A stretch of DNA of 64,000 bases from a bacterium (GCA_023267535.1 JAHFNC010000002.1:119426-183425); one strand, 5' to 3'. Shown: positions 3,450 to 57,958, counted from the first letter of the stretch. Numbers and translations are program-made. Notes: generated by a model from the sequence alone, not told the origin.

Positions 3450-4187
3450 TTACACTTGTGGCATAAGCCAAGATATTAGCCACATTGGTGGTTCTTTCTT
3501 ATTACCTATATTTTTTGCTTTAAACATTAGTCTCCGTCCGTACCTCAGTTGCTCCATCTCATCAAATTTTTGTAGGTCCTCGAATCTACAAATAAAGACG
3601 GGTTCAATTGTTCCGCCAAGTTCATCCATTAATTTTTTTAGAAGTCCTGAATGTTCTTTTGATATACCTGAAGTTTCCTCTTCAGCTATATTGGATATTC
3701 TAGAAGCAATAGCTTCAATTTTTTTTGAATGATAACCCATAAACTCTTCTTTTGTTTCTAGTCTCATTTCGTAAAAACCAAACCTACAGCCCATCAGCAA
3801 AGAGAGTATTACAAAAAATTCTTTGTTCTCTTCACCACCATTAACTAATTTTTCAGGCAACTTATCTTTCTTAGCCAATTGTTCCAATACTTGCTTGTGG
3901 TCTCTCCACTCAATAAAAGACAGACCTTCTCTAATAAGAAGTTTTTCCGAAAGGTTTTTCGTGGATTCCTCCGCATCTTCGTTTGTAATGTTTTTTGTAG
4001 CTATTTTTATAAGAGCTATAGGAAGCATTAAGATTGTAACAAACAAGACCACAACTGAAGCAACAAAATCAGATACTTTTGAATGCGGAGGTTTTTCACC
4101 AACGTGTAAGTTTTTTCTACTAGTAATGGCTGAAGAAATTCTGACAGCAGTATGTATATAGGTAATTATAAGGAACAGTTCACGCAT
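3450..4187 (-). CDS. Hypothetical protein with an N-terminal transmembrane helix
   Basis: ORF with a hydrophobic segment VASVVVLFVTILMLPIALI; divergent from obg. Confidence 0.4.
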   Translation of the reverse strand: MRELFLIITYIHTAVRISSAITSRKNLHVGEKPPHSKVSDFVASVVVLFVTILMLPIALIKIATKNITNEDAEESTKNLSEKLLIREGLSFIEWRDHKQVLEQLAKKDKLPEKLVNGGEENKEFFVILSLLMGCRFGFYEMRLETKEEFMGYHSKKIEAIASRISNIAEEETSGISKEHSGLLKKLMDELGGTIEPVFICRFEDLQKFDEMEQLRYGRRLMFKAKNIGNKKEPPMWLISWLMPQV

Positions 4188-4280
4188 AGTTCTCTCCTTG
4201 AGAATTTTGTAAAGCCTGCACCTGATTCTACAACAAAAATATCTTTTGTAAATAAAGCTAATTTATGTTAGATTATATCA

Positions 4281-5261
4281 ATGTTAATTGACCATATCAC
4301 ATTAAATGTAAAGGCCGGAAAGGGAGGGGACGGCGTAGTCAGATGGCGCCGTGAGAAAGGAATTCCATACGGAGGACCAGCGGGCGGTGACGGAGGAAAA
4401 GGCGGAAACGTTTATCTTCGCGTTGTTCGTGATATCGAAGCTCTTTCGGTTTATAAACACAAAACTGAGTGGGATGCTCCAGAGGGAGAGTCAGGACAAA
4501 AAAGAAGTATGCACGGAAAGGGTGCTGAAGATTTATATTTGAATGTTCCGATTGGCTCAGTTATTTATAATCGCGAATACGATATCAAGTACGAGTGCAT
4601 GGAAGAAGGAGAAGAGATTCTTGTTCTTAAGGGTGGAAAAGGTGGACTTGGAAATGAAAATTTTAAATCTGCTACCAACAGAGCACCAATGGAATTTACC
4701 AAAGGTCAGATTGGAGAGTTCGCGACATTTGATGTTGAACTTGAACTAATTGCTGACGCTGGAATAATTGGTCTACCAAACGCCGGAAAATCATCACTAC
4801 TGAATTCTTTAACTAGAGCTGGAGCCAAAGTTGGCGATTATCAATTCACCACTCTTGAGCCAAACTTAGGCGCTTATTATAAATACGTTTTAGCCGACAT
4901 CCCAGGACTCATAGAAGGTGCGAGTGAAGGAAAAGGGCTCGGTCACAAATTTTTAAAGCACATCAGAAGAACAAGAGAATTAGTTCACTTAGTGTCAGCT
5001 GAAAATGAAGACATCAAGCAAGCTTACAAAACTATTCGCGAAGAACTTGGAAAATTTGATAAAGAACTTTTGAAAAAAGAAGAAATGGTGGTGTTGTCAA
5101 AATCAGATACTGTATCAGAAAAAGATTTAGAGAAGAAGAGAAAAGATTTGGAGAAAGTAAGTAAAAGAGAAGTAACCGTCTTATCTTTATTTGAAGACAA
5201 ATCCGTAAAAGAATTTGGTGATAGATTTATTAAGTCTATGGAAAAGGGGATGTTGGAATAA
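4281..5261 (+). CDS. obg: GTPase Obg/CgtA
   Basis: Obg fold N-domain (KAGKGGDGVVRWRREKGIPYGGPAGGDGGKGGNVYL), G1 GLPNAGKSSLLN, DIPGLIEGA. Confidence 0.9.
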   Translation: MLIDHITLNVKAGKGGDGVVRWRREKGIPYGGPAGGDGGKGGNVYLRVVRDIEALSVYKHKTEWDAPEGESGQKRSMHGKGAEDLYLNVPIGSVIYNREYDIKYECMEEGEEILVLKGGKGGLGNENFKSATNRAPMEFTKGQIGEFATFDVELELIADAGIIGLPNAGKSSLLNSLTRAGAKVGDYQFTTLEPNLGAYYKYVLADIPGLIEGASEGKGLGHKFLKHIRRTRELVHLVSAENEDIKQAYKTIREELGKFDKELLKKEEMVVLSKSDTVSEKDLEKKRKDLEKVSKREVTVLSLFEDKSVKEFGDRFIKSMEKGMLE

Positions 5262-8696: not shown

Positions 8697-9305
8697 ATGA
8701 CAAATACAAATGATTTTTCTTATGATTCGTTAGAATATGAAGTTCCGATTGTTGGAACCAAGATTCCTGATTTTTCTATGCAAGCTCTTATTGATGGAAA
8801 AATAAAAAAAGTTTCTTTATCAGATTACAATGGCAAGTGGTTTGTTTTGTTTTTCTATCCAGCCAATTTTACTTTTGTCTGTCCGACAGAACTTGAGGAA
8901 CTTGCCAAGATGTATCCAAATTTTCAAAAAATAAATTGCGAAATACTTTCCGTTTCTACCGACACCGCTTACGCACACAAAGCTTGGAGGGATGTTTCTC
9001 CAGCTATTAAGCAAGTTAATTATCCAATGCTATCGGACGCCAGTCACGAGTTATCAACTTACTGTAATGTTTTGCTTCCAGAAGAAGGAGTAACACTTAG
9101 GGGGACATTTATTGTTGATCCAGATGGAATTATAAAAGGAATAGAAGTTAATGATAATTCAATCGGTAGATCAGCTAAAGAACTTTTGAGAAAAGTTAAG
9201 GCAGGACAATTTGTTCGTGAACACGGTGATCAGGTTTGCCCAGCTTCTTGGGAGGAAGGGGATTCTACTTTAACTCCAAGTTCCGAACTAGTCGGAAAAA
9301 TATAG
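8697..9305 (+). CDS. 2-Cys peroxiredoxin (AhpC/Tsa family)
   Basis: FTFVCPTE peroxidatic cysteine motif; C-terminal resolving Cys. Confidence 0.85.
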   Translation: MTNTNDFSYDSLEYEVPIVGTKIPDFSMQALIDGKIKKVSLSDYNGKWFVLFFYPANFTFVCPTELEELAKMYPNFQKINCEILSVSTDTAYAHKAWRDVSPAIKQVNYPMLSDASHELSTYCNVLLPEEGVTLRGTFIVDPDGIIKGIEVNDNSIGRSAKELLRKVKAGQFVREHGDQVCPASWEEGDSTLTPSSELVGKI

Positions 9306-9309
9306 TCAT

Positions 9310-9426
9310 ACACGAAAAATTACTTCATCTGCTTTGTTGTAACTTCATTTTTGTCGGTCGTCGTACTAGTTGTACGCCTTTTTCCAAAAATTCGTTACGC
9401 CTCGCATATAAAGTAATTTTTCGTGT
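9310..9426. repeat. Intergenic structured repeat family 1, copy B
   Basis: Perfect 16 bp outer arms acacgaaaaattactt / aagtaatttttcgtgt; core TCATCTGCTTTGTTG ... cgtac-tagtt-gtacg ... CCTCGCATATA. Confidence 0.7.
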
Positions 9427-9442
9427 ATTTGGGTTTAGAAAA

Positions 9443-9730: not shown

Positions 9731-9745
9731 AATGTTTGTATTACA

Positions 9746-9781
9746 AAAGCGCGCCCTTCGGGCGCGCTTGTTTTGTTTTTA
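9746..9781 (+). terminator. Intrinsic terminator
   Basis: aaagcgcgccc-ttcg-ggcgcgctt followed by a T-run. Confidence 0.7.
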
Positions 9782-10734: not shown

Positions 10735-11811
10735 ATGGCAGGACAATTAGAGAGTGCTATTTTTTGGATAGAGACAGAGAAAATTTTACCAAACCCTTAT
10801 CAACCAAGGCGTGAATTTGACGACGGAAGATTAAAGGAACTTTCTGAAAGTATTCGTCAATACGGAGTTCTTCAACCACTCGTTGTAACTAGAAAAGAGA
10901 CAATGCTTAATGATGGTGGAATAAAAGTAGAATATGAACTGATTGCAGGTGAAAGAAGACTTCGTGCTTCAAAATTAGCTGGCCTTTCACAAGTGCCAGT
11001 GGTAGTAAGAACAGGAGATGATAATCGCTCAAAGTTGGAATTAGCGATTATTGAAAATTTACAAAGAGAAGATTTAAATCCAGTAGAAAGAGGAAGGTCA
11101 TTCCAACAACTGGCTGATGAATTTAAATTGTCTTGGGTTGATATTGGAAAGAAAATTGGAAAGAGTCGTGAGTATGTGTCTAACACTGTTCGTATTTTGA
11201 TGCTCCCACAAGAGATGCTTGATGCTTTGTCTTCCAAAAAAATAACCGAGGGACACACGAGACCGCTTCTTATGCTTATTGATAGACCAGCTGAGCAAAC
11301 AACTTTGTTTAAGGAAATGATGATTCGTAAAATGACTGTCAGAGAAGCAGAAGCCTTGGCGCGTAGAATTGCTTTTGAAAAAATAAGAAAGAAAGATTTG
11401 TTTATGTCACCAGAAGTAATTGATATGGAAGAAAAATTAGCTGAGACATTAGGCACCCGTGTTCAGATTGAACCAAAAGAAAAAGGTGGAAGAATTTTTA
11501 TTGAATATTTTTCACATGAAGAATTGTTAGCACTTTCAATGCTACTTAGAACAGCTGGAGAAAGTAAAACTCACAGGGGAATGTTTGATAGATTAAGAGA
11601 GGAAGATTTAGACACATTAGGGAAAGTTGATAATTCAAATCTAGAAACTATGTTTGCTAATGTTGATAAAGAAATAAAACATAATCCAATGATTGCAGAA
11701 GAGGTGATTGAAGAAATAAATGACACTGATGATAGGTCAATTGATGAAATAAAAACTCACGAAGAAGAGAGTGATGACGACCTCTACTCCATCAAGAATT
11801 TCTCACTTTAA
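10735..11811 (+). CDS. parB: Chromosome partitioning protein ParB/Spo0J with a long acidic C-terminal tail
   Basis: ParB box IAGERRLRASKLAGLSQVPVVVR. Confidence 0.85.
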   Translation: MAGQLESAIFWIETEKILPNPYQPRREFDDGRLKELSESIRQYGVLQPLVVTRKETMLNDGGIKVEYELIAGERRLRASKLAGLSQVPVVVRTGDDNRSKLELAIIENLQREDLNPVERGRSFQQLADEFKLSWVDIGKKIGKSREYVSNTVRILMLPQEMLDALSSKKITEGHTRPLLMLIDRPAEQTTLFKEMMIRKMTVREAEALARRIAFEKIRKKDLFMSPEVIDMEEKLAETLGTRVQIEPKEKGGRIFIEYFSHEELLALSMLLRTAGESKTHRGMFDRLREEDLDTLGKVDNSNLETMFANVDKEIKHNPMIAEEVIEEINDTDDRSIDEIKTHEEESDDDLYSIKNFSL

Positions 11812-11930
11812 TCAAAAATTTAATTCATCTACTTTGTCGCTACAAAATTTGACTCGGTCAAAGTAGTGGTCTACATTTCTCTCGCAAAATTTCTAGACTC
11901 CTCGTATCTAAATCAAATTTTTGATTAAAG
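11806..11930. repeat. Intergenic structured repeat family 1, copy C (overlaps the parB stop codon)
   Basis: Outer arms ctttaatcaaaaatttaatt / aatcaaatttttgattaaag (19 of 20); core TCATCTACTTTGTCG ... gtag-tggt-ctac ... CCTCGTATCTA. Confidence 0.7.
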
Positions 11931-25128: not shown

Positions 25129-25503
25129 CTATTTTTCTCCCTCTTTATCTTTATTTTGTTCCCCAGCCTTACGAAAGATTTCATCCATATATTGTCTCTT
25201 CTTTTCTCCATAATCTAGCTCAACTTCAATGTGTGGTATAACTTTTGTTTCCAGTCTCTTTTTTATAACGTCACGAAGTTCTGAACGCATTCTTTTTGCA
25301 AATGATAAAGCCATCTCTTCTTTATTTTCTGGTAAGACACTTATGAAAAAGGTTGCTCTTCTTAAGTCAGGAGATACTTCGGCATTAGTCACAGTGATAA
25401 GTGAAGCACCAGAAGATTCGCGCTGGAAAAAAGTTTGAGCTACTGATTTTAGCTCAAGAGATACTTGTATCTGTCTTTTGGTTAATGGTTTATTTGCGTC
25501 CAT
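25129..25503 (-). CDS. rbfA: Ribosome-binding factor A
   Basis: About 120 aa and immediately downstream of infB (the nusA-infB-rbfA arrangement); the sequence is consistent with the RbfA KH-like fold. Confidence 0.75.
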   Translation of the reverse strand: MDANKPLTKRQIQVSLELKSVAQTFFQRESSGASLITVTNAEVSPDLRRATFFISVLPENKEEMALSFAKRMRSELRDVIKKRLETKVIPHIEVELDYGEKKRQYMDEIFRKAGEQNKDKEGEK

Positions 25504-25505
25504 GA

Positions 25506-25630
25506 TTTTTGTAATTAAATTGTGTCATCTACTTTGTTGCAGAATCTTACTTGCGCAGTCATCGTACTACGTGTACGACTCCTTTGCAAGTTTTCCGCGC
25601 CTCGTATCTGATACAATTTAATTACAAAAA
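25506..25630. repeat. Intergenic structured repeat family 1, copy D (between infB and rbfA, + orientation while both genes are on the minus strand)
   Basis: Perfect 18 bp outer arms tttttgtaattaaattgt / acaatttaattacaaaaa; core TCATCTACTTTGTTG ... cgtac-tacgt-gtacg ... CCTCGTATCTG. Confidence 0.7.
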
Positions 25631-25647
25631 AGATACTTGGCGTATTA

Positions 25648-27195
25648 TTAAATCTTTAATCTTTCCACCACAAAAGCCTCAAGCATATCTCCTGGAATCA
25701 TTTCGAATTTACTTTCAATAGAAATACCACATTCATTTCCTTCTAAAACTTCTTGAGTTTTTATTTTTTGTGACTGAAGTTCAATTATTTTTCCACGTCC
25801 TAAGTCAGTCCCACGACGAATTATTTTTATGTTTGCTCCATTTTGTATCTTTCCAGACTCAACACGGCCTCCGACAACATGAATTTCTTTTTGAATACTA
25901 AAAGTTTTTAATATTTTAAGAACACCAATAGTAAGCTCTTTTTCTTCAAAAGGTAGACGAGAGTCAACTAAAGTATCAAACCATTCTGTTAATTTGTAAA
26001 TTATATCAAAAATTTGTGGTTCAATTTTAAATCTATCAGCCTGATCTCTAGCCTTGCTCTCCATTTTGATAGCGAATCCTAAGATGACAGCTTTTTCATC
26101 AGATGAGGCGAGCATTATATCTCCCTCAGAAATATTTCCAACGCCTTCGCTAATTATTTTTATTTTAATATCATCGGTTTCCGTTTTCTTTATTTCTCTT
26201 TTTATAGCATCTAATGAACCCAAAGAGTCTGTTTTTATTACAACAGGAATTACAACTTTTGCATTTCTATAAATCTTTGGATCAACAACTTCTTTAACTT
26301 GTTCATTTTTTGTTTCTTGTTGAAGACGTTCTATTTCCTTTTTGTCAGAAGATGATATGAATATTGTTCCAGCAGGTGGTATAACATCAAAGCCAGTTAC
26401 CTTTATAGCTTGTCCACGATGCGCTCCCTTGATTGGTCTTCCAGCAAAATCTTCAATAATACGAATAGGGGACATTGATACTCCAGCCAAAATTGCACCA
26501 GAGCTAGCCAGTGTTCCATCTTTTATAACAAGCGTTGCCGAAACTCCTCTTTTACTGTCAACAAAACTTTCAAGTACATAACCTGTGGCATCAGCTTTTT
26601 CATTTGATTTAATATCGCTCATTTCTGCCAAGATAAGAAGAGTTTCAATTAAGTTATCAATTCCAGTTCCGACTTTGGCAGAAATTTCTACGCAAGGAAT
26701 GTCTCCGCCGTAACCTTCAATATAAATCCCATTTTCTACGAGAGAGTTTTTAGTTTTTTGTATGTCAGCATTTGGTTTATCAATTTTATTGATAGCCACA
26801 ATAAATGGAATTTTTCTTTCGCTTATAGTTTTAAAGCTTTCAATGGTTTGCTCCTTCACTGCATCTTCGGCAGAAACAATTAAAATGGCGATGTCGGCAA
26901 TTTCTGCCCCTCTTTCACGCATTGATTGAAAAGCCTCATGGCCTGGAGTATCTAGAAAAGTTATTTTTTTAATTTCGCCAGTTGGTGTTTTATGAGCCAC
27001 TTCATAAGCGCTTATACATTGAGTGATGCCACCAGCTTCTCCGTCAACTACATTTGACTTACGAATAAAATCAAGAAGAGAAGACTTTCCGTGATCAACA
27101 TGACCTAAAACAGCCACGACCGGTTGGACTTCTTCTGTAGAAACTATTTTATTTTCTACTTCTTTTGACATAAAATAATTACACCATGATACCAC
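25648..27195 (-). CDS. infB: Translation initiation factor IF-2 (short form lacking the long N-terminal region)
   Basis: G-domain AVLGHVDHGKSSLLD, DTPGHEAF, NKID; a C-terminal beta-barrel domain follows. Confidence 0.9.
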   Translation of the reverse strand: MVSWCNYFMSKEVENKIVSTEEVQPVVAVLGHVDHGKSSLLDFIRKSNVVDGEAGGITQCISAYEVAHKTPTGEIKKITFLDTPGHEAFQSMRERGAEIADIAILIVSAEDAVKEQTIESFKTISERKIPFIVAINKIDKPNADIQKTKNSLVENGIYIEGYGGDIPCVEISAKVGTGIDNLIETLLILAEMSDIKSNEKADATGYVLESFVDSKRGVSATLVIKDGTLASSGAILAGVSMSPIRIIEDFAGRPIKGAHRGQAIKVTGFDVIPPAGTIFISSSDKKEIERLQQETKNEQVKEVVDPKIYRNAKVVIPVVIKTDSLGSLDAIKREIKKTETDDIKIKIISEGVGNISEGDIMLASSDEKAVILGFAIKMESKARDQADRFKIEPQIFDIIYKLTEWFDTLVDSRLPFEEKELTIGVLKILKTFSIQKEIHVVGGRVESGKIQNGANIKIIRRGTDLGRGKIIELQSQKIKTQEVLEGNECGISIESKFEMIPGDMLEAFVVERLKI

Positions 27196-34550: not shown

Positions 34551-34634
34551 GCGTAGGTGGTGGAGTGGTCAATCACAACAGACTGTAAATCTGTCGCCCT
34601 TCGGGCTTCGCTGGTTCAAATCCAGCCCTACGCA
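34551..34634 (+). tRNA. tRNA-Tyr (anticodon GTA), type II with a long variable arm, no encoded CCA
   Basis: gcgtagg...acagacuGUAaaucugu...cgcccttcgggcttc...gctggttcaaatccagc...cctacgca; preceded by an extended -10 tgctataat. Confidence 0.85.
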
Positions 34635-34662
34635 CAAATAAAAATCCCGAAAGGGATTTTTT

Positions 34663-34800
34663 GCGTAGGGTTGGATTTGAACGGGAAAGGGGTCGGGAAA
34701 ACGGGAGTTTTCCCGTGGCGGAAGAATGGAAACCGAGGGGTTTCCAAACCGAAGCGATTGATAATGAGCGAAGGTTGTGAAATTACAGCCCTACGCACCA
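34663..34800 (+). repeat. tRNA-associated conserved element, tRNA-Tyr copy (inverted copy of the tRNA-Tyr T-arm/3' end, roughly 100 nt conserved core with two hairpins, direct copy of the tRNA 3' end)
   Basis: Terminator aaaaatcccgaaagggatttttt at 34640-34662; gcgtagggttggatttgaacg at 34663-34683 is the reverse complement of the tRNA 3' region; core GGAAAGGGGTCGGGAAAACGGGAGTTTTCCCGTGGCGGAAGAATGGAAACCGAGGGGTTTCCAAACCGAAG; cagccctacgcacca at 34786-34800. Confidence 0.6.
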
Positions 34801-34854
34801 TTTAGCACAATTAGTAACTCGTGACCAAATCAGAGCCCCTCACCAAAAGATTAA

Positions 34855-49714: not shown

Positions 49715-49746
49715 ATAAGCTCACTTGCGTGGGCTTATTTTTTTAT
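49715..49746 (+). terminator. Intrinsic terminator
   Basis: ataagctcac-ttgc-gtgggcttat followed by a T-run. Confidence 0.65.
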
Positions 49747-49778
49747 TAACGACGTAGAGCGAGAGAAGTGGAAAAGTA
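49743..49778 (+). repeat. Post-terminator motif, copy 1 (TTATTRACGACGTARAGCGAGAGAAG.G.AAAAGTA)
   Basis: ttattaacgacgtagagcgagagaagtggaaaagta; compare 57923-57958. Confidence 0.5.
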
Positions 49779-49889
49779 ATCTTTTACACTTCCGAGCCGA
49801 GGAGTTAAAAAGGATGAAATACCTCGTCAGCTTGCTGCTATAATCTTTTATTTTATAAACTCTCATATGTTATAATCTATTATCTAATT

Positions 49890-57888: not shown

Positions 57889-57924
57889 AAATGCGCGAGT
57901 TAGCCTCGCGCATTTGCTGTTTTT
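57887..57924 (+). terminator. Intrinsic terminator after smc
   Basis: aaaatgcgcgag-ttagc-ctcgcgcattt followed by a T-run. Confidence 0.7.
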
Positions 57925-57958
57925 ATTGACGACGTAAAGCGAGAGAAGAGAAAAAGTA
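57923..57958 (+). repeat. Post-terminator motif, copy 2
   Basis: ttattgacgacgtaaagcgagagaagagaaaaagta, 29 of 36 identical to 49743-49778, at the same position relative to a terminator. Confidence 0.5.

Follow-up and report, generated by a model that had tools for sequence, protein, structure and literature searches.

Copy D and the other copies in the window

The window, by which we mean the whole 64-kb stretch of DNA that was analyzed, contains infB (IF-2; 25648-27195; Pfam GTP_EFTU, IF-2, and EF-G_D2 domains) and rbfA (RbfA; 25129-25503; Pfam RBFA, PF02033, E = 2e-12), both on the minus strand. Public assemblies contain a protein identical to this IF-2 (P0001). The 144-nt gap between the two genes is occupied by copy D of a three-stem hairpin repeat (25506-25630), as identified with a covariance model and by folds. 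The minus strand, which is the structurally constrained strand of copy D, is also the mRNA sense of infB-rbfA. In that sense, the infB stop codon (25648-25650) is 17 nt upstream of copy D, and 2 nt separate the outer stem (P1) from the rbfA start codon (25501-25503), so that the ribosome-binding region falls in or beside a 22-bp stem. These Pfam-supported reading frames agree with the original prediction, which had placed the element between infB and rbfA with both genes on the minus strand.

From sequence reading and folds, the P1 arm on the TCATCT side of copy D (25506-25527) pairs with 25609-25630 over 22 bp, and the single G.T pair of this stem on the plus strand (25524/25612) is A.C on the minus strand. 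Folds place the inner stem P2 at ∼25539-25556 with 25584-25599, including an A.C mismatch on the plus strand (25541/25596), and the P3 hairpin (GTAC...GTAC) at 25562-25578. The proposal that all stems are purely Watson-Crick therefore does not hold for the plus strand of copy D. By pattern search and alignment, the conserved core motif TCATCTACTTTGT lies at 25525-25537 on the plus strand (the minus strand reads ACAAAGUAGAUGA), and a second core motif, CGTATCTGA, lies at 25603-25611 (minus strand, UCAGAUACG). On the minus strand, these two segments form UCA/UGA, a tandem G.A pair, and a covarying 3-bp helix, UAC/GUA. Columns 25525-25537 show no variation in the 87-sequence alignment described below, which was collected using the same core pattern. 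The covariance model built from that alignment, R1, scores copy D at 100.7 bits on the minus strand (E = 3e-23) and 20 bits on the plus strand, and the fold energy is -50.7 kcal/mol on the minus strand versus -44.7 kcal/mol on the plus strand (z about -10).

The pattern TCATCTRCTTTGT-N(50-80)-CGYATMTRA matched the 64-kb window five times, always on the plus strand, where shuffles gave an expectation of 0. A covariance model search of the window returned these five copies at 94-111 bits (E from 1e-21 to 1e-26) and no copy beyond them. Copies A, B, C, and E, which have the minus strand as their constrained strand and are of the majority type defined below, directly follow the plus-strand genes rpoD, an AhpC-type peroxiredoxin gene, parB, and khpA, respectively. 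In copy A (2550-2674), the outermost base pair of P1 overlaps the TAG that ends rpoD (2548-2550); copy B (9306-9430) begins 2 nt past the stop codon of the peroxiredoxin gene (9303-9305); P1 of copy C (11806-11930) contains the TAA that ends parB (11809-11811); and P1 of copy E (61302-61428) contains the final codon of khpA together with the TAA that follows it (61305-61307). With all five cores on the plus strand, copy D is oriented as the other four copies are, and relative to the neighboring genes it is read on the opposite strand to that of the other four, both as originally predicted.

Several other features of the window were noted. KhpA (60963-61307) is a protein of 114 amino acids in which the KH domain ends at residue 76, and the C-terminal extension of ∼38 amino acids is common to orthologues at loci L011 and L083, whose stop codons also bear the repeat. 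Near-identical GC-rich terminator hairpins (AAAAGCGCGCCCTTMGGGCGCGCTT, 96% identical) are found 7 kb apart, at 2714-2750 and 9742-9778, in a genome with a GC content of 35%.

A second, unrelated repeat is present at 34636-34803 and 62701-62860, after tRNA-Tyr (34551-34635) and tRNA-Thr(ggt) (62625-62700), respectively. Its parts are, in order, a hairpin, the tRNA 3' end in inverted form, ∼110 nt of conserved sequence that reads GGAAAGGGGTCGGGAAAACG..AGTTTTCCCGTGGCGGAAGAATRGAAACCKAGGGGTTTCYAAACCGAA..GAGCGAAG, and the tRNA 3' end again, now as a direct copy. The two sites are 94% identical over a 48-nt core of the conserved sequence, and no Rfam match was found for the repeat. Its layout suggests an element that has tRNA 3' ends as its target or duplicates them. 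At 62688-62748, two 30-nt arms form a perfect inverted repeat around a 1-nt spacer, the left arm being the last 13 nt of tRNA-Thr plus A/T-rich sequence downstream of it. Short repeats at 49740-49818, 57920-57958, and 62873-62902 (TTTTTATTRACGACGTARAGCGAGAGAAG at 90% identity, and CTTCCGAGCCGAGGAGTTAAAAAGG with an inverted partner) are possibly pieces of this tRNA-associated element.

A family defined by structure

When one genome per GTDB species was scanned with the exact core pattern, at least 119 loci were found. Among the matches listed, ∼88 are true homologues, with a constant spacing of 85-92 nt and a paired P1. R1 was built from 87 aligned copies, and the matches listed together with the other loci examined contain at least 133 R1 copies. 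The hosts among the matches listed are Patescibacteria (Paceibacteria, Nomurabacteria, Kaiserbacteria, and Saccharibacteria), Desulfobacterota (Smithella, Syntrophaceae, and Desulfocapsa), Bdellovibrionota, Omnitrophota, Bacillota, and Acholeplasmataceae, and most sequences in this homologue set are metagenome-assembled genomes.

All members share an outer P1 of 18-21 bp, a conserved internal loop with a 3-bp helix, a variable P2, and a small P3 hairpin. In the alignment of 87 copies, 91.7% of the cells are paired (compared with 36-43% when partners are slid), compensatory changes are present in 31 of 37 pairs, and the covariation score is 0.706, versus 0.20 in shuffles. The sequences of P1, P2, and P3 are wholly different between copies, with pairing kept. 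Among the matches listed, the P2 and P3 pairs show compensatory changes across the 87 homologues, and purine/pyrimidine covariation in the 3-bp helix divides the sequences into AU (44) and GC (41). Only ∼25 bases, all of them in the core, are conserved, and this conservation is partly by construction, since the homologues were gathered with the exact core pattern; however, both the tandem G.A pairs and the 3-bp helix with its covariation are retained in 26 copies found by R1 alone. Within one streamlined genome, copies are only ∼60% alike and yet fully paired. The family is defined by its structure together with ∼25 conserved core bases.

The family appears not to have been described previously. 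At the gathering threshold, Rfam 15 matched only tRNAs in the whole window, and a search of 25400-25750 with E values up to 10 gave only spurious eukaryotic snoRNA and miRNA matches, the top one over copy D being to a plant snoRNA model (22.9 bits). Full-text literature searches returned no description of the hairpin repeat, and a recent preprint about intergenic features proved to be unrelated. Resemblances of an 8-nt segment, GCAGAUGA, to Escherichia coli 4.5S RNA, and of AGAUGA to box C or the hammerhead core, were attributed to chance, as the covarying 3-bp helix fixes another register and Rfam gave no match. The repeat is not a phage feature: six pattern matches in viral contigs were all rejected by the covariance model. 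A blastn search of plasmids with two divergent copies gave no match.

Copies also occur in clusters. At L050 (Syntrophomonadaceae; 4010-4738), four copies on the same strand form a tandem array (72, 29, 25, and 19 bits) immediately 5' of a gene for a BadF/BcrA-type ATPase. Two contigs of one Acholeplasmataceae genome, L075 (463-2188) and L097 (907-2744), each contain two same-oriented copies ∼1.6 kb apart. The genes between them encode a GNAT acetyltransferase, a C_GCAxxG protein, and a choloylglycine hydrolase and are small, unrelated, and accessory. A methylase fragment and GmrSD are close by, and the layout is loosely like a cassette array.

The two strands of the repeat do not fold equally well. 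Among the matches listed, the reverse complement of the TCATCT core is the more stable strand in all 88 copies when folded as RNA (mean fold energy of -56.6 kcal/mol compared with -42.9 kcal/mol for the TCATCT strand) and in 85 of 88 with DNA folding parameters. The minus strand is the better folder in each of the five window copies as well. On the reverse complement, P1 in the 87-copy alignment of listed matches contains 182 G.U pairs versus 33 A.C mismatches; the G.U pairs cluster in five columns beside the core, and up to 44 of the 87 sequences have one at a single column. P2 and P3 are strand-symmetric in their G.U and A.C counts. Read in the TCATCT orientation, P1 is rich in A.C and C.A mismatches and the core opposes UC to UC, and in the reverse complement these become G.U pairs and tandem sheared G.A pairs. 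Deamination biases associated with transcription and with replication would give the opposite asymmetry. From this, we infer selection on the minus strand of the window, the complement of TCATCT.

These results dispose of the earlier suggestion of a strand-symmetric fold. They turn what had been called a weak hint, that the minus strand might be the functional one, into a strongly supported proposal, to which the conserved tandem G.A pairs, present only on the minus strand, add further support. At most loci, it is the less stable strand that is transcribed together with the gene.

Orientation and placement at gene ends

Copies were assigned to two types relative to their genes. In the majority type (A, B, C, and E), the well-folding strand is antisense to the gene that has its stop codon in or at P1. 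In the D type, the well-folding strand is in the mRNA sense, and the next start codon is 0-30 nt after P1. Among the matches listed, the 109 classifiable copies, from Patescibacteria, Desulfobacterota, Bdellovibrionota, and Bacillota, comprise 85 of the majority type and 24 of the D type (binomial p = 3.5e-9), counts that are approximate because genes were called with a crude ORF finder; a further 24 copies were unclassifiable for orientation. The bias relative to the abutting gene is thus ∼3.5 to 1 in the listed matches (majority type ∼78%, D type 22%). By host, again among the matches listed, there are 48 majority and 7 D-type copies in named Patescibacteria (13% D type), 18 and 9 in Desulfobacterota and Bdellovibrionota, and 0 and 5 in Bacillota and Mollicutes. 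In a first census of gene arrangement around 62 copies, 37 were ++, 15 were +-, 10 were --, and none was -+.

The claim that orientation is not tied to the direction of transcription does not survive the 85:24 bias or the 48:7 ratio in named Patescibacteria. Strict co-orientation with upstream genes was not found either, so copy D is a minority member and not a unique exception. Copy D is a genuine member of the family in the minority orientation, and it is not proof of free orientation. Listed D-type copies have a lower mean R1 score than majority copies (74 versus 94 bits; p = 1e-5), a difference that may partly be because R1 was built mostly from majority copies.

The plus orientation of copy D amid minus-strand genes would be explained if the repeat were a DNA-level element whose orientation is set by replication, either a single-strand transposon of the IS200/IS605 or REP type acting on the lagging-strand template or a priming signal. 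The five window copies are alike in orientation, the GC skew of the window is positive on the plus strand, and four adjacent pairs elsewhere also share one orientation while including one D-type copy. Against this, ∼10-12 of the 29 adjacent pairs found within single 8-kb loci among the matches listed face opposite ways, five of them merely following convergent genes and five being mixed beside co-directional genes, so orientation is not locked to replication. In addition, the folding strand would be the leading-strand template for co-directional genes, the rule for IS200/IS605 elements is the opposite of a folding strand on the leading-strand template, and no Y1 transposase was seen in the examined loci. 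Control of orientation by replication at the DNA level is contradicted by these opposed pairs; it is largely refuted, and we consider it highly improbable. Orientation is strictly tied neither to replication nor to transcription but is biased relative to the abutting gene.

A different reading of the strand asymmetry is that RNA of the constrained strand is itself functional. Such RNAs would be a family of cis-antisense sRNAs, or an orientation-specific barrier or processing signal on antisense transcripts that run into the 3' end of the gene, such as those started at divergent promoters of the following gene, and D-type RNAs would be made within operon mRNA. Features typical of structured RNA, namely G.U wobbles, sheared G.A pairs in tandem, and internal loops rich in A or G, are found on this strand only, and G.U dominates at specific columns (44 and 41 of 87 sequences), as it does at RNA recognition sites. 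All five classifiable Bacillota copies among the matches listed are in the mRNA sense, and only about one-third of the loci have a terminator-like hairpin able to block antisense transcription. An independent sRNA gene was nevertheless rejected, as no -10-like hexamer peak occurs at a fixed offset upstream on either strand. Promoter scans around copies A, B, C, and E gave results at shuffle level. Several loci, copy B for example, have a bidirectional terminator 10-40 nt upstream on that strand, which leaves no room for a promoter, and the element has no terminator of its own. The lower scores of the D-type copies also count against this reading, with the reservation that the model represents mostly majority copies. 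A riboswitch or leader was rejected for the D-type copies, as the genes that follow them are unrelated (DnaG, UDG, DUF5131, TrpRS/TyrRS, SOD, PPIase, and others). Taken together, function as RNA of the constrained strand seems unlikely.

In majority copies, 1-21 nt separate the stop codon from the core. In 51 of the 65 majority copies among the matches listed, the stop codon is within a P1 arm, and it is almost never >3 nt outside. In these copies, the P1 arm consists of the native stop codon and up to ∼6 native C-terminal codons, and the opposite arm is complementary to them. Pfam domains reach the C terminus in deeply overlapping copies (YchF, S12, EF-G, YidC, and a class II tRNA synthetase), and orthologues across species share the end residues (YYEVPPDR*, TGLRxKKA*, and VMNDLKxI*). 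The noncoding 3' arm tracks the particular codons of each orthologue, including synonymous differences. The offset from stop codon to core varies between species, being 5 versus 17 nt at rpoC and 9, 14, or 21 nt at khpA. The abutting genes are diverse housekeeping genes, with 159 Pfam families among 97 proteins in the matches listed, and some gene ends (khpA, rpoC, atpD, and the gene of a 583-amino acid protein) bear a copy in several species.

These properties raise the possibility of a host cis-acting mRNA module, mostly with TCATCT in the sense strand, in which terminating ribosomes would melt P1 and termination would be coupled to stability, processing, or stalling at the 3' end. REP hairpins within ∼15 nt of stop codons are reportedly coupled to termination in a comparable way. 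Orientation would then matter, and copy D would be an intercistronic variant that throttles rbfA. The confinement of the stop codon to P1, essentially never farther upstream, the construction of P1 from native C-terminal codons with a matched noncoding arm, the tight P1 length of 18-21 bp, and the retention of copies at the same gene ends in different species all fit such a module. So do the single gene-relative orientation of 78% of the listed copies and the stop codon usage of abutting genes compared with other genes in the same loci (TAG, 40% versus 25%; TGA, 9% versus 20%; p = 0.0035). However, the sense strand is the weaker folder in 88 of 88 listed copies, and its loops are UC/UC, C.A, and A.C mismatches, whereas selection on sense RNA would favor G.U. 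Moreover, the 22% of listed copies that are inverted still fold, the abutting genes have no common functional theme, and relatives lack the element at the same gene ends. We regard a cis-acting module of this kind as possible, if on balance doubtful.

A strand-symmetric hairpin that serves as a bidirectional intrinsic terminator or as a generic mRNA stabilizer, with an incidental core, would account for the location at transcription-unit ends, for the conserved A-tract and U-tract in the proximal part of P1, and for folding of both strands far better than shuffled controls. Yet terminator-like hairpins follow the element at 16 of 49 gene ends (33%) and control gene ends at 119 of 393 (30%), so that canonical terminators are neither replaced nor recruited. 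The intergenic sequence that remains after the element has a median length of 119 nt, compared with 132 nt for control intergenic regions; the normal remainder and the equal terminator rates indicate addition at the stop codon, not replacement of a terminator. Given these equal rates with and without the element, a terminator or a substitute for one was rejected. The repeat also differs from an intrinsic terminator in that its U-tract is inside the P1 stem, and its core is conserved across phyla in a fold that is strand-asymmetric. A generic symmetric hairpin is thus very unlikely.

Gain of copies and the nature of the repeat

In two relatives whose IF-2 is 75% identical to that of the window, infB and rbfA are 2-4 nt apart, the junctions being TAAttATG in L122 and TAAaagtATG in L123. 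These short junctions identify copy D as a lineage-specific insertion of ∼140 nt into an ancestral infB-rbfA junction of 2-4 nt. The L123 genome (nzgw470) bears the family at another locus, L037. A copy is located exactly on the sod stop codon in L122, and none is there in L123. Bdellovibrio-like genomes contain near-identical copies at different loci, and copies with ∼85% identity are found in one genome each of Acidaminococcaceae and Acholeplasmataceae. The mobile-element-like origin that was first proposed is thereby supported, the infB-rbfA junction being empty in two relatives of which one bears the family elsewhere.

We compared the repeat with known interspersed elements. Like REP/REPIN sequences, the copies are extragenic imperfect palindromes of ∼100 nt in many copies (here, five in 64 kb); they occupy gene 3' ends where the neighboring genes are tandem or convergent, not where they are divergent (0 of 62 divergent for the hairpin repeat in the first census), and they are cotranscribed with the upstream gene, often a few nt from its stop codon. 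REP/REPIN sequences are also thought to be recognized as folded single strands. They differ in being species-specific, with a GT[AG]G tetranucleotide 5' of a palindrome of ∼20-35 nt, whereas the core of the hairpin repeat, TCATCTRCTTTGT with CGYATMTRA, is common to several phyla, its stems are free to vary, and GTAC or GTAG occurs only inside P3 and is variable. In addition, the outer stem of the hairpin repeat takes in native codons, and its constrained strand is usually antisense to the gene. The cognate RAYT (Y1 transposase) gene of REP/REPIN systems usually has REPs on its flanks; no RAYT was seen among the 97 abutting proteins (8-kb loci and the 64-kb window).

MITEs such as ERIC, Correia (NEMIS), and RUP are likewise 100-150 bp long, have terminal inverted repeats that form a long hairpin, lie in either orientation in transcribed intergenic regions, and show presence/absence polymorphism, as do the infB-rbfA junction and the sod 3' end, which are filled or empty in relatives. 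Their TA-rich junctions are echoed by the TA flanks of some hairpin-repeat copies and by the overrepresentation of TAA and TAG stop codons. However, MITE copies are near-identical within a genome, whereas the hairpin repeat shares only core and structure (∼60% identity). The fixed terminal inverted repeats of these IS630/Tc1-type MITEs are absent here, as P1 varies and includes native codons, and a TA duplication is not consistent, since TA flanks some AT-rich copies and the Bdellovibrio-like copies and is absent in Desulfobacterota. Nor was a partner IS element found. An IS200/IS605 transposon or a PATE differs from the repeat, which has opposite orientations within 8-kb loci and a folding strand antisense to most neighbors.

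The repeat also has features of integron attC sites, which are 60-140 nt long, variable in sequence and conserved in structure, lie directly behind an ORF stop codon or overlap it, and fold on the bottom strand, antisense to the ORF, with a minority inverted. The RYYYAAC and GTTRRRY boxes of attC are not in the hairpin-repeat alignment consensus, though, no integrase is nearby, and the flanks are housekeeping genes in conserved synteny (dnaG-rpoD and infB-rbfA) rather than promoterless cassettes. With multicopy Rfam RNAs such as HEARO and self-cleaving ribozymes, the repeat shares a covariation pattern of G.U pairs, tandem G.A pairs, and purine-rich loops; it differs in having no Rfam 15 match and no associated protein gene.

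Our preferred explanation, to which we assign a probability of about 0.5, is that the family is a structure-defined interspersed repeat, probably mobile, that is recognized folded and single-stranded and is passively cotranscribed, with host selection or the insertion mechanism giving rise to the orientation bias. The repeat would be non-autonomous, and by analogy with REP/REPIN or attC, some factor may bind the constrained strand in a folded, single-stranded form. Carried passively in transcripts of host genes, it would form a 3'-untranslated region or intercistronic hairpin, and the bias in orientation could come from host selection on an effect in the RNA or from the insertion mechanism itself. 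At copy D, the strongly folding strand would be in the infB-rbfA mRNA, the ancestral stop-start coupling should be lost, and P1 should restrict rbfA initiation. Mobility in trans, recognition in single-stranded form, and an effect on rbfA translation are thus what we infer for this repeat.

Several observations bear on how an interspersed repeat of this kind would arise and persist. Linkage to a nearby transposase was rejected, as none is encoded among the 97 abutting proteins in the matches listed and the two-copy Acholeplasmataceae loci adjoin unrelated accessory genes; the examined loci contain no transposase, recombinase, or reverse transcriptase gene linked to the family as a mobilizing gene. 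No target-site duplication or fixed termini were definable among copies. Because P1 holds native coding sequence, a transposon cannot simply carry P1, and the native codons in P1 fit selection for pairing in situ or templated correction from arm to arm better than classical transposition. Copies that are only ∼60% alike and still paired, together with gene ends shared across species, suggest long-term maintenance and hence a host function. In sum, the native codons in P1, the old, diverged but paired copies, and the shared gene ends favor a host-level function or arm-to-arm correction.

In a further explanation, which is tentative and rather unlikely, the repeat would be a new, attC-like class of structure-specific site, where a single-strand-specific protein common to several phyla reads the antisense strand and the repeat settles on stop codons of essential genes as the last codons are copied into P1, or else an RNA module that couples translation termination to structure on the antisense strand. 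An attC-like site of this sort, held with the same reserve, would consist of ∼25 conserved bases, two tandem G.A motifs, and freely varying stems.

The insertion of copy D parts infB and rbfA, which are translationally coupled in relatives, and leaves 2 nt between a 22-bp helix and the start codon of rbfA. The most important outcome of this analysis is confirmation of the hint that the minus strand is the functional one, and it leaves a puzzle: the strand whose evolution resembles that of a structured RNA is, in most cases, not the one transcribed together with the gene. Although Patescibacteria are among the bacteria with the most streamlined genomes, ∼1% of the window is this repeat, at the stop codons of rpoD, parB, khpA, the peroxiredoxin gene, and infB. 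The presence of the family in at least four phyla and its absence from Rfam point to either an unrecognized mobile element that targets stop codons and last codons or an unrecognized form of control at gene 3' ends.
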